From: a virus
Direction: 5' to 3' (one strand)
Length of the DNA stretch: 64,000 nucleotides
IMG/VR virus record: IMGVR_UViG_3300035670_000147
Location: 9,294 to 73,293 of that record
Position numbers and translations under genes: made by a program. The notes beneath the pieces were generated by a model. It made no database searches. It saw only the letters and a program-made list of their open reading frames with translations, and was not told where the DNA came from. Every line of letters starts with the position of its first letter. Position 1 is the stretch's first letter. Shown one piece after another: positions 1-36,548 of this stretch.

Positions 1-1
1 A

Positions 2-1204
2 GCCGCCAGCACCCGGGCCGCCACCGAAGCCGCGCGCCAAGCCAAGCGCTTGCTCCTGCTCACCGGCACGCCGATCACAAACGAGCCGAGCGACTTAGCC
101 AGCCTGTTGTCCATGCTGCACAACAAGCCGATTTCGCCCGACCAGTTCGACGAGAAATACGTGGGCTATAAAAAAGTCCGTCCGGGTTGGTTGGGCTGGC
201 TCAAAGGCGTCAAGCCGGGTGAAAAGCCGCAGGTCAAAAACGAAGCCGAGTTGCGTGAGTTGCTCAAGGGCAAAGTCGACTATCAACCGAGCAAGACTCC
301 AGAAGGCGTAAACGTCAATGAAGAAGTCGTGCGCGTTCCGTTGTCGCCGGCGCAGCAGAAAATTCAAAACGCCATCCGCACCAAAATTCCACCGGGCTTC
401 TTGTGGAAACTCGATCAAGAGTTTCCGTTGTCGCGCGACGAACTGGCGAAACTTAATTCGTTCTTGACCGGGCTGCGCCAAGTGAGTTTAAGCACGCAGC
501 CGTTTCGGAAAGATAAAGACGTGCTCAAGGCATTCGACCAGTCGAGCAAATTGCAGAAAGCCTATGCCGACCTGCAGCAAGTCTTACAGGAAGACCCGCG
601 CAAGAAGGCGATTATCTATTCGAACTTCATTGATTCGGGCTTGAAACCGTATGCCGCCGCGCTGGAACGAGCCAAGGTGCCGTACGGTATTTTTCACGGC
701 AGCATTCCGGTGAAAACCCGGCTGCAGGCGTTGAAAGATTACAACGAAGGGCGGCTGCGGGCGTTGTTATTGGGCCCCGCGGCGGCTGAGGGAATTAGCA
801 CGAAGGGCACGAGTTTAATTCAACTCTTGGACCCGCACTGGAACGAGTCGCGGTTGCAGCAAGCCCGGGGTCGCGGCCTGCGCTTTGACAGCCACGCCGG
901 CCTGCCCGAAGACCTGAAAAACGTGCTCGTGCGCCGGTATCTCACGCAATCGGAAGAGCCGGGCCTTGTAGGAAAATATTTATTGGGCCGGCAACGGCAG
1001 CGCACCGGTGACGAAGTGCTGGAGCGCCTGACCGCCGAAAAAGAAGAGATTAACGAGGCATTTCGGCGCATTCTCCGCGAAGAGGGTGGTGCTCCCCCGC
1101 CCGAGGGCCCCAGCGTAAAGATATCAAGTATTCTGGACGACCCGCCGGAACCGCCGCTCAACCCTGCTGCAAAAGCATGGTTACAAGCGCAATTTGGTGC
1201 CTAA
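2..1204 (+). CDS. SNF2-family (SF2) helicase/ATPase, C-terminal part (5' truncated by window edge)
   Basis: Frame is open from base 2. Motifs: III LLLTGTPITN, IV IIYSNF, V AAAEGIS, VI WNESRLQQARGRGLR. Confidence 0.85.
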   Translation, partial: AASTRAATEAARQAKRLLLLTGTPITNEPSDLASLLSMLHNKPISPDQFDEKYVGYKKVRPGWLGWLKGVKPGEKPQVKNEAELRELLKGKVDYQPSKTPEGVNVNEEVVRVPLSPAQQKIQNAIRTKIPPGFLWKLDQEFPLSRDELAKLNSFLTGLRQVSLSTQPFRKDKDVLKAFDQSSKLQKAYADLQQVLQEDPRKKAIIYSNFIDSGLKPYAAALERAKVPYGIFHGSIPVKTRLQALKDYNEGRLRALLLGPAAAEGISTKGTSLIQLLDPHWNESRLQQARGRGLRFDSHAGLPEDLKNVLVRRYLTQSEEPGLVGKYLLGRQRQRTGDEVLERLTAEKEEINEAFRRILREEGGAPPPEGPSVKISSILDDPPEPPLNPAAKAWLQAQFGA

Positions 1205-6934: not shown

Positions 6935-7006
6935 TGCCCGGTAGCACAATGGTAGTGCACGGCACTGTTAATGCTGGGGTTGTAAGTTCGAGTCTTACCC
7001 GGGCAG
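6935..7006 (+). tRNA. trnN: tRNA-Asn (GTT), CCA not encoded
   Basis: Acceptor stem TGCCCGG/CCGGGCA; D arm GCAC/GTGC; anticodon arm CGGCA-CTGTTAA-TGCTG; T arm GTAAG-TTCGAGT-CTTAC; discriminator G. Confidence 0.95.
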
Positions 7007-15816: not shown

Positions 15817-16644
15817 ATGGCACGGAAGCCGAAACAGACAACTGAAAGCAAAAACGTCATTCCAACGAGTCAGGCGTTAAAGTATTTGTTCAACCTTGGA
15901 TATTTCGGAAAAGACCCGTGGTCGAAGGTTCGGTCAATACGCGGCAAGGAACTGGAAAAGGCCATTGCTGCGTATCAAGAGTTTAACGGGATTGAGCCGT
16001 GCGGGTGTGTAAACGACGTGACGGCCCACCGATTCAATCGGCGGCGGTGCGGGCTGCCGGACTTCGGGCTCACAGACCCGAACGGCGAGCCGTGCAAGTG
16101 GCCGATGAAAAACATTACGTACTATCACGAAATTAAAATGCCGGGATTGAGCGACGAGCAGGTTCGTGAGGCGTATGACGTCGCGTTCAGTCAGTGGGCC
16201 GAGGTTTGCAACATTGAACCGACCCGCGTTGACAGCCCGGCTCGTGCCAACATTTATGCGCGTTCCGGGACCGGCCGAAAAAATCATCTCGATAATCGCG
16301 GCGGCACATTAGCGTGGAGTGAGTTACCGTGCGGCGTTCATGAAACTATTCAGTTAGACCAGATGTACGACGAGGCTGAGCCGTGGTCGTTTAACATGGC
16401 TATCGCAGTGATGTGTCACGAACTCGGACACGCGCTTGGCCTGCCGCATTTAAACGATGGTAATTTAATGGCCCCGTACTACGACCCGAATGTGACGGCG
16501 CCGCAGAAAGATGATATTAAAGAAATCGTAAAGTTATACGGGAAACGCGCGCAAAAGTACCCCATTACGAAAGACGCGTCGCTAAAAATTGGCGGCACAA
16601 TCGTAATTAACGGTCGCCCGTATGTACTCGTGCCAAAAACCTGA
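15817..16644 (+). CDS. Matrixin (M10) metalloprotease with MMP-type propeptide
   Basis: HELGHALGLPH zinc motif, Met-turn LMAPYY, cysteine switch RRCGLPD, PG-binding-like prodomain (YLFNLGY...AIAAYQEFNGI). Confidence 0.85.
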   Translation: MARKPKQTTESKNVIPTSQALKYLFNLGYFGKDPWSKVRSIRGKELEKAIAAYQEFNGIEPCGCVNDVTAHRFNRRRCGLPDFGLTDPNGEPCKWPMKNITYYHEIKMPGLSDEQVREAYDVAFSQWAEVCNIEPTRVDSPARANIYARSGTGRKNHLDNRGGTLAWSELPCGVHETIQLDQMYDEAEPWSFNMAIAVMCHELGHALGLPHLNDGNLMAPYYDPNVTAPQKDDIKEIVKLYGKRAQKYPITKDASLKIGGTIVINGRPYVLVPKT

Positions 16645-20953: not shown

Positions 20954-21970
20954 ATGGGCTACGCAGAAGACGGCAAAGAAATCATAAATAACATTGTGTT
21001 GGGCACCGGAGTCGGGGCCTCGGCGACGGGGCTGTATTATCTGGCCAAGAAACTGCGGAAGCGGTTTGAAGAGCAGTTGGCTAAGAATGCGCCCAATACG
21101 CCGGACTATCACGACGTAGCCCTCGACGTGCCGAAACTCGAATCGCCTGCCCAGCCGAAGTTAGCATTTGACGCTTACAGTGTCGCGACACCTCTGGCTA
21201 CTGGCGGTGCGAGCGCAATTCTGGCGGCGGCCCTGTCGAACAAAAAAAATAAACTTCGTAACGCCGCTATTGCAGGCGCGCTGGGTGCCGGCGCCGGCGC
21301 TGGTTTGAACACCAAGCCCGTGCACGAGTTTGTCGGTAAAAATATCCCCAGTTCTATCTTCCCGTTTCTCGAACCAGTTATGGGCGGCTCGTGGTTTGAC
21401 CGCGGCTCTGGTTACAACGCTTGGAACGCCGCTTTGAATGTAGGTGGCGCCGGCCTTGGACTCGCAGGCGGAAAAGCCCTATACGACATGTCGGTCGCTC
21501 CGCAACTTGAGGTCGAGAAAAAGAAGGAGCACTACAACAGCGTAAACGACGCCCGTAAAAAATACTTTGACGCACTGCTGCGTGACGAAGACGACGACAA
21601 GAAGAGCGACAAGAAAGCCTCGGTAAACGACGCGCTCGAAGCCGCGTACACAGCCTACGCCGAAAAGAAAGCCGACTGGAAGGACTACATCAATCCGCTC
21701 AAACTGCCGCTATTAAAGCAGGTCTTTTACGACTTGCCCAACATGTACGCGGCGGCTGGCGTGGGCGCGACATTAGGTGGCGGCCTAATCGGCGGCAAAT
21801 ACATGTACGACAAGACGATGGCGGCGTCAAAAGCCAAGAACTTGGCGAAAGCCCTCGCCGCCAAGGAGCGAATGAAAGATGCGCTGCCAGTGTGGGTCGA
21901 CCCGCAAGAACTGGCGCAAATTAAAGACGTAGCCGCCGAGAAGGGCCTAGCCGCTGATCAAGGGGTGTGA
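20954..21970 (+). CDS. Glycine-zipper protein with K-x-A sites, putative virion internal protein
   Basis: PKLA, DKKA, EKKA; several GxxxG hydrophobic segments. Confidence 0.6.
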   Translation: MGYAEDGKEIINNIVLGTGVGASATGLYYLAKKLRKRFEEQLAKNAPNTPDYHDVALDVPKLESPAQPKLAFDAYSVATPLATGGASAILAAALSNKKNKLRNAAIAGALGAGAGAGLNTKPVHEFVGKNIPSSIFPFLEPVMGGSWFDRGSGYNAWNAALNVGGAGLGLAGGKALYDMSVAPQLEVEKKKEHYNSVNDARKKYFDALLRDEDDDKKSDKKASVNDALEAAYTAYAEKKADWKDYINPLKLPLLKQVFYDLPNMYAAAGVGATLGGGLIGGKYMYDKTMAASKAKNLAKALAAKERMKDALPVWVDPQELAQIKDVAAEKGLAADQGV

Positions 21971-24900
21971 CCATGTCAGACCCGCTGCCCCCGCTGCGCG
22001 CCCCCGCTCCGTTTCCTCCCGCTCCAGCGCTCCCGCAGCCGACACCGCCACAAACGCGCGCATTCGGTGATGTTGGGGCTCTGCGCGACAGCATTTTTAA
22101 CGAGGCGCTCCGCTCGGCGTCAGGGATCGAGCCGATTCAGAACGACCTGTATACGTTAAAGTTAACCAACGTCGCGTATACGGGTCCGGAACGCTACTCC
22201 CGTAAAGACCAAAAGAAAGCGGTGTTAACTCGCGGCTCGTTGGCGCGAAAGTTAACAGGAACGTGGACTTTAATAGAAAATGGCTCGGAAAAGCCTGTCG
22301 CTACGCGACAGGCTACTATAGCAAACGTGCCATATCTGACCGACTCGGGTACGTTTGTAAACAAAGGTGTCGAATACACGCTGGCACACCAACTCCGACT
22401 TCGGCCGGGCGTGTTCACGCGCGAAAAAGATAACGGCGAACTGGAGTCGCACGTTAACACGCTGCCGGGCAAGGGCCGCTCGCACCGGTATTACATGGAC
22501 CCCAAAACCGGCGAGTTTCAAATCCAAATCGGGCAGGCCAAGATTCCGCTGATGCCGCTGCTGAAGACGCTCGGCGTGCAGGAAAAGCAGATACGGGAAG
22601 CGTGGGGCAACGAGATCGCCTCTGTAAACATGCAGAAGGGCGATGCGGGCACGCTGGATAAACTTTACAGCCGCCTCGTGTTCAAGCCAGACCCCGCCGC
22701 AGATCAGTTAGCCAAGATCAAGGCTATCGCCGCGGAGTTCGCAAAAACAGAGTTAGACGAAGAGGTCACGAAACGAACGCTGGGCAAGCCGTACAAAAAT
22801 CTCACGCCGGAAGCGATTCTCGACATCACCAAAAAACTCATCGCTGTTAATCGAAAAGAAGCCGACAGTGATGACCGAGACAGCATGACGTTTCAGCAAG
22901 TCTTTGGGCCGGAGGATTTGATATCAGAACGGTTTGTGAAAGATAAGACCGCGTTGCGTCAATTGTTGTGGAAAGCGACCGCAAAGAAGTCGCTCGACCA
23001 TATTCCCAGCGGCGTATTTAACAAAGCCATTACCGCTGCGCTAATTGGCTCTGGGCTGGGTTCATCGCTCGAAGAAATTAATCCGGCAGAAATCTTTGAC
23101 CATCAAACGCGGGTCACCCGCCTTGGTGAGGGCGGCATTGGTTCGATGGACGCCGTACCGGCGGAATCGCGCAGCGTCCAGCCCAGCCATTTCGGGTTTA
23201 TCGACTACCTGCGCACGCCCGAGTCTGGCAAGGTGGGCGTCGACATGCGCTTCGCGTCGGGCGCCCGCAAGTTAGGTAATAACTTGCACACGTTTGTCGT
23301 GCCCGTCAAGAACGCTAACACTGGCGAGACAGAATATAAAACCCCGCAAGAACTGTCGGACATGCCGCTCATGTTTCCGGGCGAAGAGAAGTCCGACCTG
23401 CCGATGGTTGCGGCGCTTGTTAACGGCAAGATCAAATACGTGCCACGCAAGGACGCGCAGTACACCGTGCCGAACATGGACAACACTTTTTCGTCGCTGA
23501 CAAACATGGTGCCGATGAAAAGCATGGTAAAAGGCCAGCGCGTCATCATGGGCAGCCGCATGTTTACGCAGGCGCTTCCGCTTGAAAATGCTGAAGCCCC
23601 GTTTGTGCAGTCCGCTAAGTTTGATAGCGACGGGTCTATATCGCACGAAGACGAAATGGGCGAAAAGTTAGGCGCGATTAAAGCCCAAGTTGGCGGGCAG
23701 GTTCTGTCTGTCACGCCAGACGACATGGTTATTCGCGACAAGGACGGGCAAAAACACACGATAGACCTGTACAACGACATGCCGTTCAACCGAAAGACGT
23801 TTTGGACGCAGACGCCGACAGTCAAGCCCGGCGATACGGTGCAGCCCGGCCAACTTATTGCCACAAGCAACTTTACTGACAAAAGCGGCTCGGCCGCGCT
23901 GGGGCTGAACTTGCGCGTAGGCTACACGCCGTTTCGTGGTCGGAACTATGAAGACGCGGTTGTGATATCTGAATCGGCGGCCAAGAAACTTACTAGCCAG
24001 CACATGTATCAGCACGAAGCCGAGTGGGACGACAACACGCACGTCGGAAAAAAGTCTTTTTTGAGTTTGTTTCCCGCCGAATATGACAAGAAGGTGCTAG
24101 AAAACTTTGACGACAACGGCGCAATTAAAAAGGGTTCAATCGTAAACTTCGGTGATCCGCTTGTGCTCGTCGCCAAGAAGCGCGATCAGGTGTACGGCAA
24201 AGTACACCGCGGCCGAGCGGGTGCTTTTGCAAATGAAACAATTACGTGGGAACATCATTCTCCGGGCGTTGTGACTGACGTTGAGCACACAAAAAAGGGC
24301 GTATCGGTCGTCGTGAAGTCGCAGGCGCAGATGGAGGTTGGCGATAAAATTACGGGTCGTTTCGGCGATAAGGGCGTTGTGTCTGAAATTGTGCCGGACG
24401 ACCAGATGCCGCAGGACGCGAAGGGTCGCCCGCTTGAAATTCTGGTCAGTCCGCTCGGCCTTATAAACCGCGTAAACCCGGCGCAAATTATTGAAGCGGC
24501 TCTCGGAAAAGTTGCCGAAAAAACTGGCAAGCCGTTCAAAATCAAAGACTTCGACAACGACAATGATTTGATCGAAATGGCGATGGCTGAGTTGACTAAA
24601 AACGGTCTGACAGACACCGAAGACCTGATAGACCCCGAGACTGGGCGCAAGATTCGCGGCGTGCTGACTGGCAATCGTTTCTTTATGAAACTGCACCATA
24701 CGGCAGAGTCGAAGGGGCAGGGGCGGTCTATTGGTGGTTACACGGCAGAAGGCACGCCGGCAAAAGGCGGCAGCGAAGGCGCCAAGCGTGTCGGCATGTT
24801 GGAACTGGGTGCGCTTCTTTCGCACGGTGCCGGCAAAGTAGTCCGCGACGCCAAAATGGTGCGCGGACAGGCTAACCCTGAGTATTGGACGCAGTTCATG

Positions 24901-26403
24901 GCCGGTTACGACCCGCCGCTGCCCAAGGTGCCGCACGTCTACGAAAAGTTTGTGAATCAATTGCGAGGCGCCGGCGTTAACGCAGTTCGGACCGGTACGA
25001 AAACGCACATCATGGCGCTGACCGACAAGAACATCGACGAGTTAGCGGGCGACCGTGAAATCCAGAACGCCGAAACCGTGGATTGGAAGGGCAACCTTAA
25101 GCCCGTAAAGGGCGGGTTGTTTGACGAAACACTCACCGGCGGGCATAACGGCAATCGCTGGTCAAAAATAACATTGCACGAACCGATGCCGAATCCAATC
25201 ATGGAAGAACCAATTCGGCGTACGCTTGGGCTGACAGAAAAGAAATTTCGCGCGATACTCGCCGGGCAAGAAAAACTGGGCGACAAAACTGGCCCGACAG
25301 CAATTCACGAAGCGTTGAAAGCCGTTAACCTGCCGCGCGCAATCGAACAAGCGCGTGCTGATATTAAGTCTGGTCGCCGCACACTGCGCGACGCGGCGGT
25401 GCGTCGCTTGGCGTTTTTGAAGGGCGCCGAAGCAACGGGCGTGCACCCCAAAGACTGGATGCAAACAAAGGTAGGCGTCTTGCCGCCGGCATTTCGCCCC
25501 GTGTCGACGATGGGCGCAAAAAGAATGCAACTTATCGACGACGCAAACTATTTGTACAAAGAACTGCTTGATTCAAATAACGTGCTGAAAGAAGCGTCTG
25601 GATTACTGTCGGATGTGGGCAACGAGCGGCTGTCGCTGTACGACTCGATGAAAGCCGTCTCAGGTTTAGGCGACCCGCAGCACCCGAAAAACGTCGAGCG
25701 AAATGTCCGCGGATTTTTGTCAAAGATATTTGGTGATAGCCCCAAGTTCGGCACGATGCAGCGCAAGTTGTTGTCGAGCACCGTCGATCTTGTAGGTCGT
25801 GCGGTAATTTCGCCCAACCCAGACCTCGACATGGACGAGGTAGCGCTGCCCGAAGACAAGGCGTGGGAGATTTACAAGCCGTTCGTGGTTCGCGGCCTTA
25901 TTCGGCGCGGAATGCCGCGCATGAACGCGCTGCGCGCCGTTGAAGAACGCAACAAAGAAGCGTTTGCTGAGTTAAATACGCAGATGGGGTCGAAACCAAT
26001 TGTTATTAACCGCGCTCCGGTGCTGCATCGATACGGCGTAATGGCGTTTTACCCGCGTCTTACCAAGAACAAAGTCATGGAAGTCAACCCGGTTATTACC
26101 AAGGGGTTCGGGGCCGATTTCGACGGCGACGCGATGCAATATCACGTCCCCAGCACCGACGATGCCGCGAAAGAAGCCATAGAAAAAATGCTGCCTAGCC
26201 GCAATTTGTTTGCGGCGTCCAACTTTAAAGCGCATTACGTGCCCAACAAAGATTACCAAACTGGTGTATACTTAGCGTCCAGCAAGATTAATAGCAAATC
26301 AAAACCGCGCGTATATCGCACCAAAAAAGACGCTCTCGCGGCCTACCGCCGCGGTGACATCGATGTAGACACGCCGGTACATATTGTGGAAGATAAAGCC
26401 TGA
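21967..26403 (+). CDS. rpoBC: Phage multisubunit RNA polymerase: beta fused to the N-terminal half of beta' (contains the catalytic loop)
   Basis: Beta motifs: GTFVNKGVE, TPESGKVG, GRNYEDAVVISE, GDKITGRFGDKGVV, FMKLHH, KRVGMLE. Beta' motifs: GGLFD, VLPPAFRP, GRAVI, NRAPVLHR, GADFDGD. Confidence 0.93.
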   Translation: MTMSDPLPPLRAPAPFPPAPALPQPTPPQTRAFGDVGALRDSIFNEALRSASGIEPIQNDLYTLKLTNVAYTGPERYSRKDQKKAVLTRGSLARKLTGTWTLIENGSEKPVATRQATIANVPYLTDSGTFVNKGVEYTLAHQLRLRPGVFTREKDNGELESHVNTLPGKGRSHRYYMDPKTGEFQIQIGQAKIPLMPLLKTLGVQEKQIREAWGNEIASVNMQKGDAGTLDKLYSRLVFKPDPAADQLAKIKAIAAEFAKTELDEEVTKRTLGKPYKNLTPEAILDITKKLIAVNRKEADSDDRDSMTFQQVFGPEDLISERFVKDKTALRQLLWKATAKKSLDHIPSGVFNKAITAALIGSGLGSSLEEINPAEIFDHQTRVTRLGEGGIGSMDAVPAESRSVQPSHFGFIDYLRTPESGKVGVDMRFASGARKLGNNLHTFVVPVKNANTGETEYKTPQELSDMPLMFPGEEKSDLPMVAALVNGKIKYVPRKDAQYTVPNMDNTFSSLTNMVPMKSMVKGQRVIMGSRMFTQALPLENAEAPFVQSAKFDSDGSISHEDEMGEKLGAIKAQVGGQVLSVTPDDMVIRDKDGQKHTIDLYNDMPFNRKTFWTQTPTVKPGDTVQPGQLIATSNFTDKSGSAALGLNLRVGYTPFRGRNYEDAVVISESAAKKLTSQHMYQHEAEWDDNTHVGKKSFLSLFPAEYDKKVLENFDDNGAIKKGSIVNFGDPLVLVAKKRDQVYGKVHRGRAGAFANETITWEHHSPGVVTDVEHTKKGVSVVVKSQAQMEVGDKITGRFGDKGVVSEIVPDDQMPQDAKGRPLEILVSPLGLINRVNPAQIIEAALGKVAEKTGKPFKIKDFDNDNDLIEMAMAELTKNGLTDTEDLIDPETGRKIRGVLTGNRFFMKLHHTAESKGQGRSIGGYTAEGTPAKGGSEGAKRVGMLELGALLSHGAGKVVRDAKMVRGQANPEYWTQFMAGYDPPLPKVPHVYEKFVNQLRGAGVNAVRTGTKTHIMALTDKNIDELAGDREIQNAETVDWKGNLKPVKGGLFDETLTGGHNGNRWSKITLHEPMPNPIMEEPIRRTLGLTEKKFRAILAGQEKLGDKTGPTAIHEALKAVNLPRAIEQARADIKSGRRTLRDAAVRRLAFLKGAEATGVHPKDWMQTKVGVLPPAFRPVSTMGAKRMQLIDDANYLYKELLDSNNVLKEASGLLSDVGNERLSLYDSMKAVSGLGDPQHPKNVERNVRGFLSKIFGDSPKFGTMQRKLLSSTVDLVGRAVISPNPDLDMDEVALPEDKAWEIYKPFVVRGLIRRGMPRMNALRAVEERNKEAFAELNTQMGSKPIVINRAPVLHRYGVMAFYPRLTKNKVMEVNPVITKGFGADFDGDAMQYHVPSTDDAAKEAIEKMLPSRNLFAASNFKAHYVPNKDYQTGVYLASSKINSKSKPRVYRTKKDALAAYRRGDIDVDTPVHIVEDKA

Positions 26404-26423
26404 TTGTTCACACGGAGGTAAAC

Positions 26424-27155
26424 ATGGATTACACGGTAAATCCGGAACTGCTCGCGCTTGCGAACCGGCGCGTATTCGAAAAATCGGCGGTAGTGCCTCC
26501 GCAGGGCGGCATGGGTGTCGACCAGTCGCAGCAACTCGGTATGGCGCCCCCGACCCCGGACGCAATGGGCGCGCAACAGCCGGTTGACCCGGCACAGGCC
26601 GCCGCCGCTGCTGGCGGCGCGCCCCCAGCCGCTCCTCCCGGCATGATGGACCCGGCTATGTTGGGCGCGTTGCCACCCGCCACTCCGACCGCGCCGGCTC
26701 CCGGCGCCGCAGGGCAAAAATTGAAGCCCGAGCAGATGATGCAAATGCTCGATTATCGGCTGTACAACATGCAGCAGCAACTCACGGCGATTATGAACGC
26801 TATGGGCGTGCAAGTCGCGCCGGAGTCGCTTGTGTTGCCTCCCGGCACTACTGGCGCGCCGCCCGCAGAAACTGCGCTTCCGGGCGGCCCCATGGCCCCG
26901 CCGCCGGCACCAGAAGGCGCGGCCGGCCCGCAACCCCCCGGCGGGCCCATGCCTCCCGGAGGTCCGCTGCCTCCGGGCGCACCGCCTGCAGACCCGGCAG
27001 CCGGTAAGCAAGCGAACTGGTGGGAGCGCGTCGAGGCGCACGCCGTTAGCCGCGTAGGCCGCCCCGTAAGCCCCGACATTGTGACCATTGATCTGCAAGC
27101 GAAAGTCGGCGCCGCGAAGGCGTTGCACCGGAGTTTAGCGGACGATGCTCGTTAA
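26424..27155 (+). CDS. Pro/Gly/Ala-rich protein between the RNAP genes
   Basis: GGAGG RBS; EKSA and GKQA flank a low-complexity region with a central helical segment. Confidence 0.65.
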   Translation: MDYTVNPELLALANRRVFEKSAVVPPQGGMGVDQSQQLGMAPPTPDAMGAQQPVDPAQAAAAAGGAPPAAPPGMMDPAMLGALPPATPTAPAPGAAGQKLKPEQMMQMLDYRLYNMQQQLTAIMNAMGVQVAPESLVLPPGTTGAPPAETALPGGPMAPPPAPEGAAGPQPPGGPMPPGGPLPPGAPPADPAAGKQANWWERVEAHAVSRVGRPVSPDIVTIDLQAKVGAAKALHRSLADDAR

Positions 27156-27360
27156 AACTCAGCACAACTTAATGCCGGCGGAGCAGAAAGCCCACAGCGT
27201 TGTCGTTGAAGACGATTTAGGTAATCCTATTTTTGTCGCAACGCATTTGGTGGACGGCATTCTGTACTCAGCCGTCGGGGATAAAGATTTTAAGGCTGTG
27301 CTCAACATGGTCGGGCTGACGAATGCGCCCGAAGTTAAAGAATTACCGCCGCCGAAGTGA
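27145..27360 (+). CDS. Small hypothetical protein
   Basis: 71-aa ORF between the Pro-rich gene and the beta' C-half gene. Confidence 0.55.
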   Translation: MLVKTQHNLMPAEQKAHSVVVEDDLGNPIFVATHLVDGILYSAVGDKDFKAVLNMVGLTNAPEVKELPPPK

Positions 27361-27366
27361 TATATC

Positions 27367-29319
27367 GTGCTAAAAACCACCCTCGGCCAGTTAATGATTA
27401 ACGAAGCGCTTCCTGAAGACATGCGCGATTACGAGCGCGTGTTGGACAAGAAGACTATGGGCGCGCTGGCGACTGATCTGGCAAAACGATATCCGGATCG
27501 TTATCGCGAGGTGATGAAAAAAATTCACGACGTCTCTCGCGACGTGGCATACACGACGGGCGGTCTTTCGATGGGCTTGAAGGACATTCGCCCCACGTTT
27601 GCCAGCCAACACGCGCAAATTAAAGTGCGCAAAGAACTGCGGCAGATTCTGGCAGACACGAGTTTGTCAGACAAAGAACGCGAGTTGCGAATCCTCAAAC
27701 TCGCCGCCGAGACGCAGCAGAAACTTGTCGAAGACGTATTTAACGAAGCCCGCGACGCGAATAACCCGCTTGCCCATCAAGTGCTGGCCGGCGCGACTGG
27801 TAACAAATTCATGTTAAATTCGCTACTGGGCGCCGACCTGCAATACGTAGACCACCGCGACCAGCCGATTCCGCTGCCCGTAATGCGGAGTTACAGTCGG
27901 GGCTTAACTCCTGCAGAGTACTTCGCGGCGTCTTTCGGCACGCGTAAGGGTGTTATTGACGTAAAGACTGCCACAGCAGACGCCGGATTTTACGGCAAGC
28001 AACTAACGCAGATGGCGCACCGTTTACTCGTTACAGCCGACGATGACGACGACGAAGACAGGCTTAGAACTGCGCACAATCGCGGCCTGCCGTCCGACGT
28101 CGACGATCCGGACAACGAAGGCGCTTTTTTAGCGCGACCTGTGGGGCCATACAAGCGAAACACTGTACTGACGCCCAAAATTCTCAAAGATATCAAAGCG
28201 ATGGGCGTAAAAGATATTTTAGTGAGAAGCCCGCTCGTCGGTGGGCCAGAAGATGGCGGCGTGTACGCCAAAGACGTCGGATACCGCGAAAAAAGTCGGG
28301 TGCCGCCGGTCGGCGATTATGTCGGCATTGCCGCTGCGCAAGCGCTGTCTGAGCCAGTCTCGCAATCGCAACTATCGTCTAAGCACTCGGGCGGTGTTGG
28401 CGGCGCAAAGTCTATTTCTGGCTTCAAGGCTATCAACGCGCTAGTACAAGTGCCGCGCAAATATCCTGACGGCGCGACGCACGCTCAGCGCGAGGGTCGC
28501 GTGCAGGAAATACGCCCGGCGGCGCAGGGCGGATTTTATGTCACGGTAGACGGCGAAGATCATTACGTCCCGGCCGACCGGCAGGTCTCCGTAAAAAAAG
28601 GCGACGTGCTGGAGGCCGGCGACGTGCTGTCCGACGGCATGCCAAACCCGGCCGAAATTGTTAAGCACAAAGGCGTCGGCGAGGGCCGTAAATACTTTGT
28701 GCAGGCAATGCGCCAAGTTTTAGGCAACTCAGGTATCACCGCTCAGCGCCGAAACATTGAACTCGTGGCGCGGGGTTTGATTAATCACGTTCGGCTGACC
28801 GACGAATATGGCGATTACGCTCCGGACGACATTATTCCGTATTCCATGCTTGAGCGCTCGTGGCGCCCGCGCTCCGGAGCCGTGGCGTCAGCGCCCAGCG
28901 CGCTTGTAAATCATTATTTGGAAGAACCCGTACTGCACTACTCGGTCGGCACAAAAATAACAAAAAGCGTCGCTGACAATTTAAAGAAGTACGGTATTGC
29001 AACAGTGCAGGCTCACAAGCAGCCGCCGCCGTTCGAGTCAGAGATGGTGCGCGGCATGGCGAATATATCGAACGACCCCGACTGGATGACCCGCATGCTG
29101 GGTTCTTATCAGGAGCGCGGGTTTTTAAACAGTGTTCACCGCGGACTGGCCAGCGACACGGCCGGCAGCAGTTACGTTCCGGCGCTGGCACGAGGCGAAG
29201 AATTTGGCAATTCTGGCCCCACAAGCGGCTGGAAACCTGCGCCGCCCTCCGGTAGCATATTGCAGCCCGTCCCCAAGCCCCCGACAAGTCCGCTAGGCTC
29301 TGAGCCAAAAACACTGTAA
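27367..29319 (+). CDS. rpoC: Phage RNA polymerase beta' C-terminal subunit
   Basis: TTLGQLMINE; bridge helix GLTPAEYF...GTRKGVID...TADAGF; trigger loop VGIAAAQALSEPVSQ...KHSGG; RRNIELVAR. Confidence 0.9.
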   Translation: MLKTTLGQLMINEALPEDMRDYERVLDKKTMGALATDLAKRYPDRYREVMKKIHDVSRDVAYTTGGLSMGLKDIRPTFASQHAQIKVRKELRQILADTSLSDKERELRILKLAAETQQKLVEDVFNEARDANNPLAHQVLAGATGNKFMLNSLLGADLQYVDHRDQPIPLPVMRSYSRGLTPAEYFAASFGTRKGVIDVKTATADAGFYGKQLTQMAHRLLVTADDDDDEDRLRTAHNRGLPSDVDDPDNEGAFLARPVGPYKRNTVLTPKILKDIKAMGVKDILVRSPLVGGPEDGGVYAKDVGYREKSRVPPVGDYVGIAAAQALSEPVSQSQLSSKHSGGVGGAKSISGFKAINALVQVPRKYPDGATHAQREGRVQEIRPAAQGGFYVTVDGEDHYVPADRQVSVKKGDVLEAGDVLSDGMPNPAEIVKHKGVGEGRKYFVQAMRQVLGNSGITAQRRNIELVARGLINHVRLTDEYGDYAPDDIIPYSMLERSWRPRSGAVASAPSALVNHYLEEPVLHYSVGTKITKSVADNLKKYGIATVQAHKQPPPFESEMVRGMANISNDPDWMTRMLGSYQERGFLNSVHRGLASDTAGSSYVPALARGEEFGNSGPTSGWKPAPPSGSILQPVPKPPTSPLGSEPKTL

Positions 29320-29365: not shown

Positions 29366-31768
29366 GTGTATAACAAAAAGCAAAAAGAAGCGTCGGGAAA
29401 GCACTGGTTAAACGTTGTCCGGTCATATGACCGCACCCGCACCAAATCTGCCGAACTCGGCGGCCGCGGAGACGACGTAGCGTTTGAACAGGCTTTTTCG
29501 AACCTTGCGCACGCCTATCTCCGCGACGGCGCGCCGAAGTTGATGGACCACGAAATCGGTTTCCAACTTCTCGACCGCAACCGAGAAAACACAAAAGCCG
29601 TCGGCGTTTTTGCGTTTAAAGTCGGTTCCATGTGGTTGTACGCCCCGGTGTTCTTTTTGAACGGCGACCTCAAGGGCCACGAACTCCTGTACATCAAGAA
29701 TCAGGACATGTTCGTGCCGCTTAAGGAAAATTGGGTGAATTACCTTGTGAACCGCAAACCCAGCATTTTGGGGAGCGGCATCGACAAGAATTTAACGCAA
29801 TTTGGGCAGCGGCAGCCGGACTTCACGCAACTCTCGCGGAGCCCGGCCAAGTTCGGGTCCGCCCAGCCAACGCTGAAAGAGATGATGACCGCCGTGATGC
29901 CGACACTGGCCAAGACCGCCACGATGAACACCAAGTTGGCATTTGAAGAACTTGGTCACAAATTGAATCTCAAAGAGTTTTTGAAGCAGGCGGGGCTGGA
30001 AACAATTTCGGCGCTGGTGAAGACCTGCCAGTACGCGCCGCATCTCGCCGAGGCAATCGATGAATTTCACGGTTTAGATATTATTAGCGAAGCGATTAGC
30101 GCCGCGAACGCCCGCACCGCCGCCGCTAATCAAAAAGTTGCCAGCGTTTTGTCCGAGGCGCCCGATACGCCCAAGGCCATGGCGACATTAAAAGTCATTA
30201 CGTACGACGCAACAATGCAGACGGCGCTTCCTCCCGGGTATAGCGAGGAAGATCAAGAAAAATTATTGCGCGACGGAATTCTGATCAAGGACATCCGCGA
30301 TCGCGATAACGTTTCTGTGCCGTACAACATTCAGGTCGAAAAGAAGTTGTTCAACCCGACCGACAGCGGCCTCTACATGGTGCTAGTCAAGCCGGGCGAC
30401 GTCGAAAAATGCTACATCGCCGTACACCCGATGGGGTCGTGCAAGCGGAGCGACTTTGTCACCGTCGTGCGCACCGAAGGCACGCCCGAGTGGATCAACA
30501 TTCGAGCCGACCGCGTGTTCTGTTTAAGCCGGGTCGAGGGCGACGAGTTCGATTCTTGGTACAACGGGCTCCCCGACGCCGACAGCGTATCAAAGAGCGG
30601 GCGCTATATGGCAATTCACAAATGCGGCGACACCACAGTGCCGTTCCGCGTTTTGCGCGAATACGGCGACACAGAGTTTGGCGGCAACGCTTACGAAGTC
30701 CACATGGAAGATCGCTCTGATTTCCCGCCCAAAGGCCACATTAGCGGCTGCGGCTACACCGACGCATTAAACTACGACAAGTATCGCGACGGGGTGCGTG
30801 TCCACTTAAAAGGCAAGGGCGGCTCTAAACTTCGCGTCAGCATGGGCGACGTCTTTGTGCCGGAAGGCTATAAGTTACTGAAATGCGCCCCCGGCGAAGA
30901 CGATCAGACAAGCGCTGACGGCCAAGAGGCGTGCGGCTGTGGCGAGAGCAAAAACCCGCCGCTGATGCCGGGCAACCTCGCGGACGCGCAGTTGTCGCTC
31001 ATGCAAAAATTAGGCAGTGTCACGATTTATCACAACGGCACGGCCGTAGAAATTCATAGCCCCAAAAAGCAACTCGTTGAAAAAGAACTGTCGGAGAAGC
31101 AGGCGTTGGCGTCTCTGGTCGAGCGCCACGGGTTACGCGAAGAAGCCGCCCGAACGTTGCTCGACAACGCAAAAGCCCGCCGTAAGTTTTCTTGTCACAT
31201 CAAGTACGCCAATCCGTACGGCAGCCCGATGATGATTCAAAACGCCCCAACAGCCCCGGCCGACCCCGGCCCGGTTATGGGCGGCGAAACTATCATGGGA
31301 ACCAGCGTGCCGACACAACTTGGCATCGATGTCGGCGTGCCGGTGCCGGGGATGTCCGCCAGCCAAACAGATCGCAGCGTGTATAACCCGAATACAGAGT
31401 TAGATCAAAACTCCGTGAAACAGGTTCTTGACGCGGCGCAAACCGGTCAGCGCGAAGTATTTGATACTGCGATGATCGGTACGATGCTGCGCGCCGTGCG
31501 GGACGACGGCCTTGTTGACCGTTATATGGGCGAGTTGACGAAGGGCCTCGATAAGTTGGGCCGCATTTTGTTTATGTTTTACTGGCACGGCGACCGGTTT
31601 GCCGATCGCTACGGCAAGGCTGACATGCCGGAATTAGAGGATTCGTTGCGCAACGCGTTTGAAATGTTGGGCGACGTAATTTTGTTCCTCAAGCAAAAGA
31701 CGATCGAACCGTACCCTGAAGAAGAGTCGCAAGACGTCGATCTCGGCGCCGCGGCTGGCGCATCGTAA
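29366..31768 (+). CDS. Large head-associated protein with K-x-A sites
   Basis: GTG start after a GGAGG hairpin; TKSA, AKTA, TKLA, LKQA, QKVA, IKYA; lies in the head module. Confidence 0.6.
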   Translation: MYNKKQKEASGKHWLNVVRSYDRTRTKSAELGGRGDDVAFEQAFSNLAHAYLRDGAPKLMDHEIGFQLLDRNRENTKAVGVFAFKVGSMWLYAPVFFLNGDLKGHELLYIKNQDMFVPLKENWVNYLVNRKPSILGSGIDKNLTQFGQRQPDFTQLSRSPAKFGSAQPTLKEMMTAVMPTLAKTATMNTKLAFEELGHKLNLKEFLKQAGLETISALVKTCQYAPHLAEAIDEFHGLDIISEAISAANARTAAANQKVASVLSEAPDTPKAMATLKVITYDATMQTALPPGYSEEDQEKLLRDGILIKDIRDRDNVSVPYNIQVEKKLFNPTDSGLYMVLVKPGDVEKCYIAVHPMGSCKRSDFVTVVRTEGTPEWINIRADRVFCLSRVEGDEFDSWYNGLPDADSVSKSGRYMAIHKCGDTTVPFRVLREYGDTEFGGNAYEVHMEDRSDFPPKGHISGCGYTDALNYDKYRDGVRVHLKGKGGSKLRVSMGDVFVPEGYKLLKCAPGEDDQTSADGQEACGCGESKNPPLMPGNLADAQLSLMQKLGSVTIYHNGTAVEIHSPKKQLVEKELSEKQALASLVERHGLREEAARTLLDNAKARRKFSCHIKYANPYGSPMMIQNAPTAPADPGPVMGGETIMGTSVPTQLGIDVGVPVPGMSASQTDRSVYNPNTELDQNSVKQVLDAAQTGQREVFDTAMIGTMLRAVRDDGLVDRYMGELTKGLDKLGRILFMFYWHGDRFADRYGKADMPELEDSLRNAFEMLGDVILFLKQKTIEPYPEEESQDVDLGAAAGAS

Positions 31769-33147: not shown

Positions 33148-35082
33148 ATGCGTTCACTCAGCAAGGAAGCCGAGCAAAAATTAATTGGCGCGATCGAAAA
33201 GGCCGCCACGCTCGTTAACGAAGGCGCGACCCCGACAGACGCAATTATCAAAAGCGCGCGCGAACACGATATTCCGTCGGGCCACATTAACCTTATGGTG
33301 CACGCTTACAACACCGGGCGCACCACGACGCAACGAGAAAAAGGAGAAAGCACGCTGGAAAAAGCGGCGGAATTTCCGTTGGCAGACGTTAAAGACGTGT
33401 TAAACGCCCTGTATCCCGAAACGGTAAAGTCCTCGTCTGAGATTAAGCGCGCAGAGGCGGTCTCCACGGAGTATGCGCTGCCAGTCGCTGGCATGCTGGC
33501 CCGCCGGCGCGGAGAGATGCAAAAGGCCGCTGCGGCTCAAGTCGCGCTGCCAGAAAAGACTTGGACGCCGCCACCGCGCGACGCCCACGCGGCTGTCATG
33601 CGCGCGCAAAGCGAAAAAGTTGCGGCGCAGCGGGCGGAAGAAGAAAAACGGCGGCAAGCGTCAGCGGCGTACAGCAAGGCCGCCGCCGCCATGGATGAAA
33701 TAAATATTTATTTCAGGACGCCCGGCAACATGCTATTCGGCGACGCTGTCCGAGAAGTTGGCTTACGGTTCGGCGACCCGGGTGTTTCAGTGCTGCAAAA
33801 AGTTGCGGCCGTATACCCGCACTTTACGAAACAGGCAGATAGCAAGAAAGCGCACTTTGGCGCAGACCCTGTTTACGAGTTGGTGCAAAATGTTCTGGAC
33901 GCGGTAGGTGCGTATAACAGCGCGCAAGGAGCCGTAGTCACAAAAAAATCTGAAGCGGTCAGTAAGAAAACCGCACCAGAATTTCTTACAGGCTCGATCC
34001 TGACAGCGATTCAAGAAGCGCCGCTGACATTAAAAGCCGCCGAAAGAAAAGGCGGCCCGGGAACGAACCCGCTCGGCGACCGAGCCAAGAACACGAACAA
34101 GCAGCCGCCAAAAGACAAGACGCCCCATATACCCTCGTTAAAGTCTACTCCCAAGCGTGAAGAGCCAGAGCCCGCCCCCGGCCCGGCACCGTCAGCGAAT
34201 ATTGACCCTCGCACAGCCGTTGACGGCCCGGATGACTGGGACGTGGGACCGACCCCCGAATTAGACGCGGCACTCGAAGAAATATCTTTTGGAGAGCAGT
34301 TAGACCGGAATAGGGCCGACGCAGCCGCGCGCAACCAAGAATACGCGCGGCAAAAAATGCTTGACGAAGCCAGCGAATACGAACGCGCCGAAAAAGAAAA
34401 ACTGCAAGACGCTTTATTTAACGAAAGCGAAACAAAGCGTGTGCAGCAAGAGCGGGACGAGGCGTATGCCAGAAAACTTCGGGACGAAGACTTGGCCGAC
34501 GACGCCGCGGCCGCAGAACAACTGAAAGCCGAGCAAGCACAAGCCGCCGAAACAAAGAAACAACGGCAAGAAACTTGGAGCAAAGGTAAAGACATCGGCA
34601 AAAACTTTGGCGAAGGTGTTAGCAAAACCATTAAAGACACGGTCGGCGAGCCGCTGACCGGGCCGGCAAAATTTATTGGACAACTGCTCGGGGCGAAGGA
34701 CCTGAGCGCCCTATCACCCATTAAAGATAAAGACCCGAAAAGCATGCTGCGCGAGCAGTATCAACAACTCACTGATCCAAGCCACGAAAATGCTCTCAAG
34801 ACAATTCGCGCAAAAAGCATTGTCCACGACATGGTGCTAAACGACCCAGTTATCTCGGGTTACGACCCGCAAGACGTCGCGATGGCATTTAACGAGATTG
34901 CGGAGTTGGCTCCGAGCCTCATTGACGCCCCGGGCATGATCCGCCCGCTGCTGCGTAAGCGCTTAGAGTCGGGACAGTTGGCCGACTTTGACGTTAAGCA
35001 AATTTTGGAGATGGACAAACTCCGGGCCGACCGCGATAAGACTTTGATGGACGTCAAAGACAAAACTCTCAACCTGCTGTAG
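33148..35082 (+). CDS. Coiled-coil head-associated protein with many K-x-A sites
   Basis: IKSA, EKAA, IKRA, QKAA, EKVA, QKVA, TKQA, KKTA, LKAA. Confidence 0.6.
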   Translation: MRSLSKEAEQKLIGAIEKAATLVNEGATPTDAIIKSAREHDIPSGHINLMVHAYNTGRTTTQREKGESTLEKAAEFPLADVKDVLNALYPETVKSSSEIKRAEAVSTEYALPVAGMLARRRGEMQKAAAAQVALPEKTWTPPPRDAHAAVMRAQSEKVAAQRAEEEKRRQASAAYSKAAAAMDEINIYFRTPGNMLFGDAVREVGLRFGDPGVSVLQKVAAVYPHFTKQADSKKAHFGADPVYELVQNVLDAVGAYNSAQGAVVTKKSEAVSKKTAPEFLTGSILTAIQEAPLTLKAAERKGGPGTNPLGDRAKNTNKQPPKDKTPHIPSLKSTPKREEPEPAPGPAPSANIDPRTAVDGPDDWDVGPTPELDAALEEISFGEQLDRNRADAAARNQEYARQKMLDEASEYERAEKEKLQDALFNESETKRVQQERDEAYARKLRDEDLADDAAAAEQLKAEQAQAAETKKQRQETWSKGKDIGKNFGEGVSKTIKDTVGEPLTGPAKFIGQLLGAKDLSALSPIKDKDPKSMLREQYQQLTDPSHENALKTIRAKSIVHDMVLNDPVISGYDPQDVAMAFNEIAELAPSLIDAPGMIRPLLRKRLESGQLADFDVKQILEMDKLRADRDKTLMDVKDKTLNLL

Positions 35083-35090
35083 GGCTAACT

Positions 35091-36548
35091 ATGAGCATGA
35101 TTAAAGTCATTCAGCCGCACTCGCAAGAGTTTAGCGAGCCGGTCGCCGCGCTGATTAAAGTTTCAAGTCGGGGCATTATTGGCCACGACAAGCAAGCGTT
35201 TGTAAAGCGCGCCGGGGCAGAGTTCGTCGAAAAAGTATCGCACATTAAATTCGCAAAAGATGAAGTTCCTGTGCACCTGATCGCTATCGGCGCCACTGAA
35301 GATTACGGGCCCAACCGCAACGGCGACGGGTTTAGCCGAGACACTTGCAAAAAAGATCATCATACGTTTGAGAAGTTAGCGCGGTTTTATCGTGACCACG
35401 CCAACAAAAACCCGGCTAAAAGTTTCGGGATTGTAAAGGCGTCGTACTACAACGAGCCAATGAAGCGCATCGAATTGATCTGCGCGCTAAACGGGTCAAA
35501 AGAGGCCGCCGATCGAAACGGCGGACTTCTTGCCGACAAAGAGATGGAAAAACTCTCGTCAGGCAAGGACATCCCCGTGTCCATGGCTTGCAAAATTCCT
35601 TTTGATATTTGCTCGGCCTGCGGCAATAAAGCCCGGACGCGCGCCGAATACTGCGACTCGATTGAAAACGGCGGACACTGTAAGGCGGGCGGGTTAAAAC
35701 ACAATATGGGTCGTGTGCTGGAAGACGGCCACATCCTTCACGCCGACAACATTAAATGCGCTTTTTTCGACATCTCTCACGTTTTCAGGCCCGCCGACCG
35801 GATCGCGTATGTATCAGGCCGGCTGGAAAAGGCGGCCTCAGCAGGGATCATTTCCGGCGCAGAACTTGCCGAGCAAATGGGGGTCACGATGCCGTTTGGG
35901 CTCGACTCTGCCGCGGCGTCGAAACAGGCAGCGAGGCAATTTAACGCGCTGCAGCAACTGGCCCAAGCCGAGCAAGAAGGCGTTAACAACTCGGCCGGCT
36001 GGACGCAGGCTGCGCTTGCCAGTCACCCAGCCGTGCAACCCCCGCTCGATGTAAATTCGTGCCCGTTTGCTAAAATGGCCGAAGTGCTGCGAGGACTTGC
36101 CGACGCTGGCGTGATCTTGTCAGTGCGGGATTTCTTGGCACTTACGGTAAAATCTGCTAATGTAAAACTTGTTGATGCAGTGACTTATGCGCTGCCCAAC
36201 ATTTTTTCCAAACTTGCGGCAGAAGAAGATATCGGTTCATTACTCGAAAACAACAAGTTCTATCCGGCAGAAGGGGCGTCAGAGTCCGTACGACTTTGGG
36301 CCGAAAAGGTCGCGACCACACACAGCGCGCTAACCCCTAATGTCGAAAAACGAGCGTATTTGGCCGCAATTCGCAACGTTAAACCTGTAAAACCAGAAAT
36401 AGAAAAGCGGGCGAGCACCAACGCAGAAATTGCACTTGCGAAGCATTACGCTTTGTATAAGATTGCTGCATTCGCTGCCGCCGGCGAAAAATATCAGAAT
36501 AACTTGTTGACAGCAAACCACTGTGTAATGCAAAATTATGTCACGTGA
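35091..36548 (+). CDS. Putative prohead maturation protease
   Basis: NRNGDGF, RDH, VSMACKIPFDICSACGN, FFDISHV..PAD (His/Ser layout of HK97/assemblin-type head proteases); directly upstream of scaffold and capsid genes. Confidence 0.65.
   Translation: MSMIKVIQPHSQEFSEPVAALIKVSSRGIIGHDKQAFVKRAGAEFVEKVSHIKFAKDEVPVHLIAIGATEDYGPNRNGDGFSRDTCKKDHHTFEKLARFYRDHANKNPAKSFGIVKASYYNEPMKRIELICALNGSKEAADRNGGLLADKEMEKLSSGKDIPVSMACKIPFDICSACGNKARTRAEYCDSIENGGHCKAGGLKHNMGRVLEDGHILHADNIKCAFFDISHVFRPADRIAYVSGRLEKAASAGIISGAELAEQMGVTMPFGLDSAAASKQAARQFNALQQLAQAEQEGVNNSAGWTQAALASHPAVQPPLDVNSCPFAKMAEVLRGLADAGVILSVRDFLALTVKSANVKLVDAVTYALPNIFSKLAAEEDIGSLLENNKFYPAEGASESVRLWAEKVATTHSALTPNVEKRAYLAAIRNVKPVKPEIEKRASTNAEIALAKHYALYKIAAFAAAGEKYQNNLLTANHCVMQNYVT

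Follow-up and report, generated by a model that had tools for sequence, protein, structure and literature searches.

A two-chain phage RNA polymerase in which β is fused to the N-terminal half of β′

Cellular-type RNA polymerases (RNAPs) are, to our knowledge, thought to need an α-dimer platform, ω and structural zinc, and several rearrangements of their two large subunits are known. Helicobacter and Wolbachia carry rpoB-rpoC fusions, in which the C-terminus of β is joined to the N-terminus of β′ in one frame and β′ stays whole. Cyanobacteria and plastids divide β′ into γ (RpoC1) and β′ (RpoC2) within the stretch that follows the double-psi barrel; in cyanobacteria β is unfused, and α, ω and the zinc sites are present. 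Phages of the phiKZ/AR9 type encode bacterial-type cores without α or ω in which β is also split, giving four to five chains in each of two sets, one of them virion-packaged, and no sigma; the accessible text of PMC7598289 has their β′ cut past the barrel, at the same site as in cyanobacteria. Here we describe a further layout, found in a 64 kb stretch of the IMG/VR virus record IMGVR_UViG_3300035670_000147 (the whole stretch of 64,000 nucleotides is called the window below): a whole β is fused to the N-terminal half of β′ (β′N) in one open reading frame (ORF) at 21967–26403 (plus strand, 1478 amino acids, aa), and the C-terminal half of β′ (β′C) is encoded apart, in an ORF at 27367–29319 (plus strand, 650 aa).

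The record, our contig G000, holds 73,293 bases at an estimated completeness of 36% and comes from an uncultured tailed phage of ~200 kb. Nearly all genes of the window lie on the plus strand, and the two ORFs are the only recognisable RNAP of this phage. We regard the two-chain RNAP as almost certainly real, and its layout appears to be undescribed: our literature search, outside which bioRxiv supplements and subscription journals lay, found no phage β::β′N fusion with a separate β′C. The accessible text of the paper on phage Arash (PMC10585845), whose RNAP has the same layout, contains no mention of a fusion (the word “fused” is absent). The Arash-like lineage itself is already in the records as β/β′, the entries for Arash and its Vibrio phage relatives labelling the chains simply β and β′, or hypothetical.

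Architecture of the two chains and position of the break

The first-pass annotation had proposed a β::β′N fusion with a separate β′C and both double-psi barrels in one polypeptide, and this description holds: both ORFs are present, and their domains are recognised by Pfam and in matches to solved chains. As β is joined to β′N in one ORF, the two barrels lie on a single chain. At the N-terminus its β part has a Pro-rich tail, after which comes a complete bacterial-type β including the double-psi barrel (Rpb2_3 at residues 368–428; Rpb2_6 at residues 577–926, E 1e-49), and residues 111–1027 align to solved bacterial β chains (best E 6e-66). β continues to about residue 1075, and after some seven linker residues the β′ N-terminus begins. 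On the β′ side, Rpb1_2 matches at E 7e-23 and Rpb1_1 at residues 1153–1210, below its cut-off, and residues 1081–1474 align to solved β′ chains, equivalent to about residues 145–544 of E. coli β′. The N-terminal Cys4 zinc-binding domain of β′ is replaced by a short Cys-free segment, likewise in Arash and Vibrio phage D69 according to the alignment, and the clamp helices and the β′ double-psi barrel are retained.

All sequence motifs quoted earlier for the locus are found in the translations, with KRVGMLELGAL at residue 940, GADFDGD at residue 1382 and AYRRGDIDVDTPVHI at residue 1459 of the fused chain, and the start of β′C as described. Of the two possible starts of the fused gene, ATG 21973 appears likelier than GTG 21967 because AAGGGG lies 7 nt upstream of it and because the database cluster representative has 1476 aa. 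The Asn of the catalytic loop contacts the ribose of the incoming nucleoside triphosphate in cellular enzymes. Among the 120 homologs listed (see below), 105 have the window's GADFDGD at this place, 13 have NADFDGD and two have AADFDGD; Arash and D69 have AADYDGD.

The β′C gene is separate and lies 964 nt downstream of the fused gene, and the two chains together comprise 2128 residues. β′C begins with VLKTTLGQLMINE, the TTLG segment, and matches Rpb1_5 (E 3e-23); its residues 2–497 align to solved β′ chains, for example to residues 659–1166 of Streptomyces β′. The blastp comparison with Salmonella β′ covers residues 702–939 (residues 115–343 of β′C) and 1180–1283 of the latter, and residues 122–346 of β′C align with residues 709–942 of E. 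coli β′. With these aligned ranges and with what we take to be the E. coli positions of the two elements, the bridge helix falls at residues ~189–219 and the trigger loop at ~316–346, and the chain terminates in a Pro-rich tail. The Rpb2_6 region, the β′ barrel with its DFDGD loop, the bridge helix and the trigger loop of a bacterial-type catalytic core are thus all found; an encoded α dimer and ω and the two Cys4 zinc sites of β′ are not.

Chain 1 ends at a place equivalent to residues ~545–552 of enterobacterial β′ and chain 2 starts at ~575–580, with ~25 residues missing between them; in Streptomyces numbering the break has residue 625 on one side and 659 on the other. Residue 557 of the 626 of cyanobacterial γ aligns with residue 1472 of chain 1, and residue 12 of RpoC2 with residue 24 of β′C, so that the phage break lies ~12 aligned residues before the cyanobacterial γ/β′ break. 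This comparison is made by coordinates and not residue by residue over the γ tail, to which the N-terminus of β′C gave no direct alignment at E up to 10. By coordinates it bears out the earlier placement of the break just before TTLG and upstream of the cyanobacterial site.

The window enzyme therefore shares with the cyanobacterial and plastid RNAPs a break in the same post-barrel stretch, and differs in the earlier position of the break, in the deletion of ~25 residues and in the fusion of β to the N-half. Compared with a full rpoBC fusion, its chain stops after the β′ barrel and β′C is a separate gene. With the phiKZ/AR9-type enzymes it has in common a phage-encoded, bacterial-type core without α or ω; unlike in these, β is whole and fused to β′N, there is one set, and relatives carry a sigma-like gene. 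In YerA41, a smaller phage with separate genes for β′N, β′C and β, the β′ break lies ~100 residues further on. Because phiKZ-type and cyanobacterial β′ are also cut in the post-barrel stretch, a break there is, on this comparison, a recurrent theme, and the unusual part is the whole β fused to β′N. The mReC phages, like the window phage, are uncultured and tailed and have a bacterial-type RNAP that branches deeply; in the accessible part of PMC7481178, their β (920–1563 aa) and β′ (902–1391 aa) are separate in 28 “Metagenomic phage” rows, one of them garbled, and were collected with a filter for β′ of at least 800 aa with NADxDGD. The window layout fails this filter because of its 650-aa β′C and its GADFDGD loop. 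It is set apart from mReC by gene layout and motif, the tree described below having been built without mReC sequences.

The gap between the two RNAP genes consists of two ORFs of 243 and 71 aa, and no sigma-70-type promoter-like or terminator-like site was found in the region 26300–27500. The larger ORF occupies this position in all relatives that extend that far. The smaller one shows codon-rhythm conservation in a DNA alignment of 11 loci, was found by tblastn in 32 related loci (33–87% identity) besides the window's own contig (L002 and L003), and has D23, N27, A32, D48 and F49 invariant in the protein alignment. One or both of these ORFs could encode small RNAP subunits, with omega-like, assembly or packaging-adaptor roles, in which case the enzyme would have more than two phage-encoded subunits. 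In line with this, both are retained between the RNAP genes wherever a related locus extends this far, from 52% to 94% RNAP identity, both lack cysteine as the RNAP does, and the 71-aa ORF ends 6 nt before β′C. They nevertheless match no family (the 71-aa ORF was searched in Pfam and PHROGs), the corresponding place in Arash and D69 showed no recognisable homolog, and both diverge faster than the RNAP (42–87% against 70–94% identity). A predicted complex of β′C with the 71-aa ORF scored 0.00 in a run without controls and counts neither way. We judge additional subunits to be unlikely and retain the two-chain enzyme as the preferred reading.

Many homologs of β′C (~50% identity; P0126, P0129 and others) have the same start residue, yet are 1000–1800 aa long. 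Among four of the homologs, those of 1394 and 1491 aa continue into a linker rich in Pro, Gln and Thr and then a helical extension at the C-terminus, and one of 741 aa has a shorter Pro/Ala-rich tail; the β′C of the window ends after its own short Pro-rich tail. Still other homologs align piecewise, in two or three segments, and may contain insertions, for example inteins.

Authenticity, spread and phage lineage

In IMG/VR we found 36 related loci with 52–94% identity, several of them on contigs of 198–210 kb and two with terminal repeats. The fused frame is open in all 36 as far as each extends. The order fused gene, 243-aa ORF, β′C is kept in 32 of the 36, β′C being cut by the contig end in two of these, and the remaining four stop inside the fused gene. 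The homolog list used throughout comprises 120 of the 1281 clusters at E ≤ 0.001, among 7993 scored, and in all 120 of those listed Rpb2_6 (PF00562) and Rpb1_2 (PF00623) lie on one chain; with strong E-values, the family numbers more than 1000 sequence clusters. At the level of sequencing runs, three studies in all have Logan contigs that cross the β/β′ junction (nt ~25190) free of indels. Those of X3, a further run of the study behind the record, cover 24200–26502 with 0 differences, and the junction is likewise crossed in X4 and X6, which belong to two other studies.

These data bear on the possibility that the fusion is an artefact of assembly or frameshift, or that cellular rpoB and rpoC sit on a misbinned bacterial contig. 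Nothing in favour of either was found, though three contigs of metagenome-assembled genomes (MAGs) carry such genes. An artefact is contradicted by the open frame in all related loci and by the intact junction in the contigs of three studies. A cellular origin is contradicted by the record itself, a virus contig that carries phage genes, tail-sheath-like ones among them, and lacks genes for ribosomal proteins, whereas real rpoBC loci adjoin rplKAJL, and by the separate clade that the enzyme forms in the tree below. We consider this explanation extremely improbable and, as far as sequence data can do so, refuted.

In the tree of the β part (IQ-TREE, 17 rows, 928 columns), the window groups with three IMG/VR relatives, Arash and D69 behind a branch supported at 100/99. 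The nine rows of cellular or MAG origin are separated at 99/98, and the closest neighbours of the fused clade, on long branches, are Carin-5 and YerA41. The cellular rows are few (Firmicutes, Gammaproteobacteria, one Planctomycete, one faecal contig and three from a mixed MAG) and leave room for nesting in an unsampled phylum; solved RNAPs of many phyla score alike, from 226 to ~180 bits. Within this small cellular sample the fused enzymes stand apart from the nine cellular or MAG rows instead of nesting among them, and with no ribosomal genes adjacent, the distinct phage lineage proposed in the first-pass annotation is upheld.

By these sequence comparisons the enzyme is a member of an Arash-like fused phage RNAP lineage, in which a β::β′N chain of ~1450–1530 aa is paired with a β′C of ~600–650 aa and junction and break are identical. 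Arash (gp206, 1525 aa; gp216, 606 aa) and the Vibrio phages D69, D148 and D181 align with the fused chain over 96% of its length, with 32% identity. In Arash gp206 and in D69 the junction, the deletion of the zinc domain and the C-terminal end are all as in chain 1 of the window, and the four phages share with it the start of chain 2, Arash and D69 also a place in one clade. In common with the window's lineage, Arash has an SNF2 helicase, a gp10-like sigma and a catalytic loop without Asn; its sigma genes are gp10 and gp196. It differs in its 32% identity, in having one and four cysteines in its two chains, and in its gene order, with nine other genes between the RNAP genes and the helicase directly after β′C.

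Several side observations concern the relatives. The RNAP genes of some carry in-frame insertions (L028/L029, 10001–15427; L039, 10001–21286, record G004): ~1 kb is inserted at fused-chain residue 420–435, and further insertions are found at residue 939, at residue 1394 and at residues 337–353 of β′C. The fused frame of G004 is open over 2555 aa, and one homolog bears intein and LAGLIDADG families; judged from their sequences, the insertions are inteins at conserved RNAP sites. In Vibrio phages D148 and D181 a homing endonuclease lies inside the fused gene. Fragments of the family are also binned in bacterial MAGs (loci L061–L063), on three contigs that offer no host clue; one of the MAGs is mixed (genome G006, with seven Rpb2_6 matches), and a 46% relative sits in another, assigned to the Thermoguttaceae. 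These fragments are probably misbinned phage DNA rather than a clue to the host.

Sigma, cysteine content and the case for packaging

Each of four complete relatives, and also Arash, has a single Rpb2_6 match; by this marker there is one RNAP set per genome. Neither RNA_pol_L (α) nor Rpb6 (ω) was matched in any of five records (the window's contig, three complete relatives and Arash), and 14 of 14 controls matched. The phage enzyme may use host α. An earlier remark that no α, ω or sigma gene lies nearby is correct within the window; it fails just beyond it, as a sigma-family gene is found in a relative ~300 bp past the point where the window's contig ends. This ORF (268 aa, same orientation), placed by contig alignment with the closest complete relative, G001, encodes a homolog of Arash gp10 (E 6e-18) that matches Sigma70_r3 (4e-9), Sigma70_r4 (7.5e-5) and PHROG 351 (sigma factor family) and has 0 Cys. 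Because the enzyme retains the clamp helices and a Cys-free sigma-family protein with regions 3 and 4 is encoded in the lineage, promoter recognition is most likely sigma-dependent, and on these sequence features we consider it quite probable that transcription by the enzyme depends on sigma. The SNF2-family helicase, whose gene enters the window at its upstream end, shares 36% identity with Arash gp217 across 456 aa and contains 0 Cys; it may act as a RapA-like partner of the RNAP. An SNF2 helicase is also linked with phiKZ-type RNAP genes, and a RapA-like role has been suggested for it, in the accessible text of PMC7824862.

The fused chain and β′C contain 0 Cys in 2128 residues, and therefore neither the first nor the second Cys4 zinc site of β′. 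At the background frequency of the other plus-strand ORFs of at least 100 aa on the contig (177 Cys in 18,063 residues, 0.98%), ~20.9 would be expected in the RNAP (P(0) ~8e-10). Among the 120 fused homologs listed, 111 have no Cys, three have one and six have 6–13; these six are 1805–1878 aa long, a length that fits an intein, and one of them carries intein families. Seven further ORFs of at least 150 aa on the contig lack Cys (Table 1), most neighbours having 1–3%, and the members of this Cys-free set may be proteins that exit the capsid by way of the tail.

A precedent is found in phage N4. Its gp50 is a candidate functional analogue of the window enzyme, a capsid-carried RNAP that is ejected to read early genes, and at the same time a single-subunit T7-like polymerase that is not homologous to it. 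In the record of Escherichia phage N4 (locus L081, 6759–7598 and 34523–47523), the 4294 residues of its three ejected proteins, gp50 (3500 aa), gp51 (644 aa) and gp52 (150 aa), include 0 Cys, compared with 1.26% in fifteen other N4 proteins; in the accessible text of the paper that identifies them as ejected (PMC13434306) the word “cysteine” is absent. Within the same scope as above, the literature search found no account of cysteine-free ejected proteins. We also observed that the 32-kDa virion protein of N4 is Cys-free.

Further evidence on packaging comes from the particles of Arash, in which the homologs of the enzyme and of its proposed partners are detected: in the accessible text of PMC10585845, Gp206 has 3516 spectra (the most detected protein, above the capsid protein), Gp216 1210, the helicase Gp217 1148 and the sigma Gp10 467. 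The sequence layout also supports a link with the virion, as the RNAP genes are co-oriented within a block of virion-protein genes, in which window ORFs are homologous to the Arash particle proteins gp218 (weakly), gp222, gp233, gp234 and gp236. We had earlier described this surrounding as a head module with internal head proteins. What the sequence shows is synteny with genes of Arash particle proteins; the name head module is not borne out, no portal or capsid protein having been identified in the window. Taken together, our analysis leans towards an RNAP that is packaged in the virion and ejected, and since packaging is the weakest part of the explanation, the explanation as a whole is held just as firmly and no more.

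Several points weigh against this reading. The particle data come from Arash alone, which is 32% identical to the window enzyme. The phiKZ RNAPs were used as a second control for the cysteine pattern: 14 other large phiKZ proteins contain 0.53% Cys and the non-virion RNAP 1.16%, with a subunit list that, apart from Gp55, we presume to be right. The phiKZ virion RNAP (Gp80, Gp149, Gp178 and Gp180, as named in the accessible text of PMC10612078) has 16 Cys in 2614 aa (0.61%). The Cys-free rule is not general, because this packaged enzyme is at background level, and as a clue the lack of cysteine thus holds for N4 and fails for phiKZ; in our analysis it fits an ejected protein and does not prove ejection. 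In the window itself, Pfam, PHROGs and the folds attempted revealed neither a portal nor a major capsid protein, and the catalytic loop has Gly at the first position of an otherwise near-universal NADFDGD. The sigma-like gene lies off the window's contig, and Sigma70_r2 was matched in Arash and a 52% relative and in none of the three closest complete genomes, so that the sigma-like protein is divergent or partial. Lastly, the Arash preparation contained 116 proteins, including ribonucleotide reductases and helicases, and its authors allow for carry-over in the accessible text of PMC10585845.

The alternative is that the RNAP is real and unpackaged. Host RNAP would then serve early transcription, and the phage enzyme with its sigma would take over middle and late transcription; the Arash particle signal would be carry-over, and the lack of Cys would have another cause, for example zinc-site loss and drift, or an oxidising niche. 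That some of the enzymes in the Arash preparation are unexpected in virions, and that its authors themselves name carry-over (accessible text of PMC10585845), agrees with this alternative. So do the cysteines of the packaged phiKZ RNAP, which make their absence here undiagnostic, and the single RNAP set per genome, whereas RNAP-packaging phages of the phiKZ type hold a second. The rank of Gp206 at the top of the Arash particle proteins (accessible text of PMC10585845) speaks against it, as do the co-orientation of the RNAP genes amid homologs of particle proteins and the extent of the Cys-free set, which takes in the RNAP, the SNF2 helicase, the NUDIX/2H protein, the 1399-aa ORF and the sigma-like protein of G001 among neighbours with 1–3% Cys and has its counterpart in the ejected proteins of N4. 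We rate the unpackaged enzyme as rather unlikely.

Under the favoured explanation of a packaged RNAP, chain 1 (~1476 aa) would provide both double-psi barrels and the Mg loop on one polypeptide, and chain 2 (650 aa) would dock on it, completing the active centre with the bridge helix and trigger loop. The covalent β–β′ tether would stand in for the assembly role of the α dimer. The enzyme would be synthesised late, alongside virion proteins and together with the sigma and the SNF2 (RapA-like) helicase, packed in the capsid and ejected with the DNA, whereupon it would read the early genes; the same single RNAP would be used again later in infection.

More tentatively, and with a packaged enzyme as its starting point, a complete and self-sufficient transcription kit might be delivered through the tail and run the whole infection independently of host RNAP, an idea that we find doubtful. 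The kit would comprise an α-less, zinc-free, two-chain sigma-holoenzyme, the RapA-like SNF2 helicase and perhaps the NUDIX/2H RNA-end enzyme, all Cys-free so that the proteins can unfold, cross the envelope and refold. One enzyme would suffice, with no second polymerase and no phage nucleus. If this were true, it would be a third way besides those of N4 and phiKZ for a phage to bring its own polymerase, and the enzyme would be the smallest natural sigma-dependent RNAP of the cellular type.

What the locus adds is a very large natural family that does without α, ω and zinc by means of re-cut large subunits and apparently keeps sigma. Structural and mechanistic studies thereby gain a minimal, naturally tethered and Cys-free enzyme of two chains and ~2130 residues, in which the role of the β–β′ tether and of the conserved post-barrel break can be tested, and cultured members (Arash and the Vibrio phages) bring bench tests within reach. 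If the enzyme is packaged, it represents a third strategy of host-independent early transcription and backs the lack of cysteine as a clue to ejection that can be taken from sequence alone.

Neighbouring genes

Table 1. Features of the RNAP locus and its surroundings. Positions are those of the window, negative numbers lying upstream of it on the same contig, unless contig G000 is named.
Feature	Position	Strand	Length (aa)	Basis and remarks
Cys-free ORF	-5860..-5372		162	0 Cys
Cys-free ORF	-5338..-2990		782	0 Cys
Trypsin-like protease	contig G000 7054–8091	+		Upstream of window
SNF2-family helicase	1..1204 (3′ part; whole ORF -844..1204)	+	682	Gene start 844 nt upstream of window; Pfam Helicase_C, SNF2-rel_dom; PHROG 62
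Glycosyltransferase	4724–5623			
Ferritin-like protein	6295–6837			
tRNA-Asn(GTT)	6935–7006			
FkbM-type methyltransferase	7015–7560			
Actin-like protein	9280–10314	+	344	Pfam Volactin (archaeal actin family) end to end, E 2e-58; weak MreB
2H phosphoesterase + NUDIX + DUF5661 protein	11733–13655	+	640	0 Cys; candidate RNA-end or nucleotide-processing enzyme
Matrixin-type (M10) metallopeptidase	15817–16644	+		Peptidoglycan-binding domain weak, below cut-off
Gly/Ala-rich, glycine-zipper-like ORF	20954..21970	+	338	0 Cys; no Pfam or PHROG family
β part of fused chain, residues 1–1075	21967..25191	+		Pfam Rpb2_3, Rpb2_6; solved β chains; junction alignment with Arash/D69
β′ N-half, residues 1076–1478	25192..26403	+		Pfam Rpb1_1, Rpb1_2; solved β′ chains; alignments
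Catalytic Mg loop GADFDGD, residues 1382–1388	26110..26130	+		Gly where Asn is usual
Pro/Ala/Gly/Met/Gln-rich, low-complexity ORF	26424..27155	+	243	0 Cys; helical core ~98–160 conserved
Conserved small ORF	27145..27360	+	71	0 Cys; stops 6 nt before β′C start; codon-rhythm conservation, tblastn, protein alignment
β′ C-half	27367..29319	+	650	Pfam Rpb1_5; solved β′ chains; blastp to Salmonella β′
ORF directly after β′C	29366..31768	+	~800	Likely GTG start behind GGAGG; weakly like Arash gp218
Cys-free ORF	33148–35082		644	0 Cys
Homolog of Arash gp222	35091..36548	+	485	40% identity over 238 aa; PHROG 2774 (function unknown)
Ala/Glu/Lys-rich protein	36596–37894	+	432	Invariant EF-hand-like DVDNDGKIEGSDL; basic C-terminus
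AAA_5 (MoxR-like) ATPase	42744–43574			
ORF with tail-sheath-like matches	47971–51528			
Cys-free ORF	56676–60875		1399	0 Cys

The ORF immediately upstream of the fused gene (338 aa) has a stop that overlaps GTG 21967 and lies 2 nt before ATG 21973. It evolves fast, with 25–35% identity in loci whose RNAP is ~77% identical, and is possibly a membrane-active ejection protein or an internal protein. On the other side of the locus, the ~800-aa ORF that follows β′C resembles the Arash particle protein gp218 (24% identity over 145 aa, E 2e-4) and is conserved in 30 related loci. Its fold prediction is poor, with a pLDDT (predicted local distance difference test) of 51.6 and a pTM (predicted template-modelling score) of 0.34; with this poor fold, Foldseek gave no usable match in BFVD, the best TM (template-modelling) score being 0.17–0.20, to an unnamed phage protein. 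A search of the ESM Atlas likewise gave no usable match.

The 485-aa ORF, which by the look of its motifs might be a prohead protease, has a predicted fold too poor to use, with a pLDDT of 31.9, and its Arash homolog Gp222 accounts for 365 particle spectra in the accessible text of PMC10585845. The 432-aa protein downstream of it is conserved like the RNAP (66–87% identity), and its 449 homologs are all unnamed. It was tried as a capsid protein and rejected, as its Ala/Glu/Lys-rich consensus with DVDNDGKIEGSDL looks, from the sequence, more scaffold-like. The actin-like protein, further upstream in the window, possibly positions DNA or capsids.

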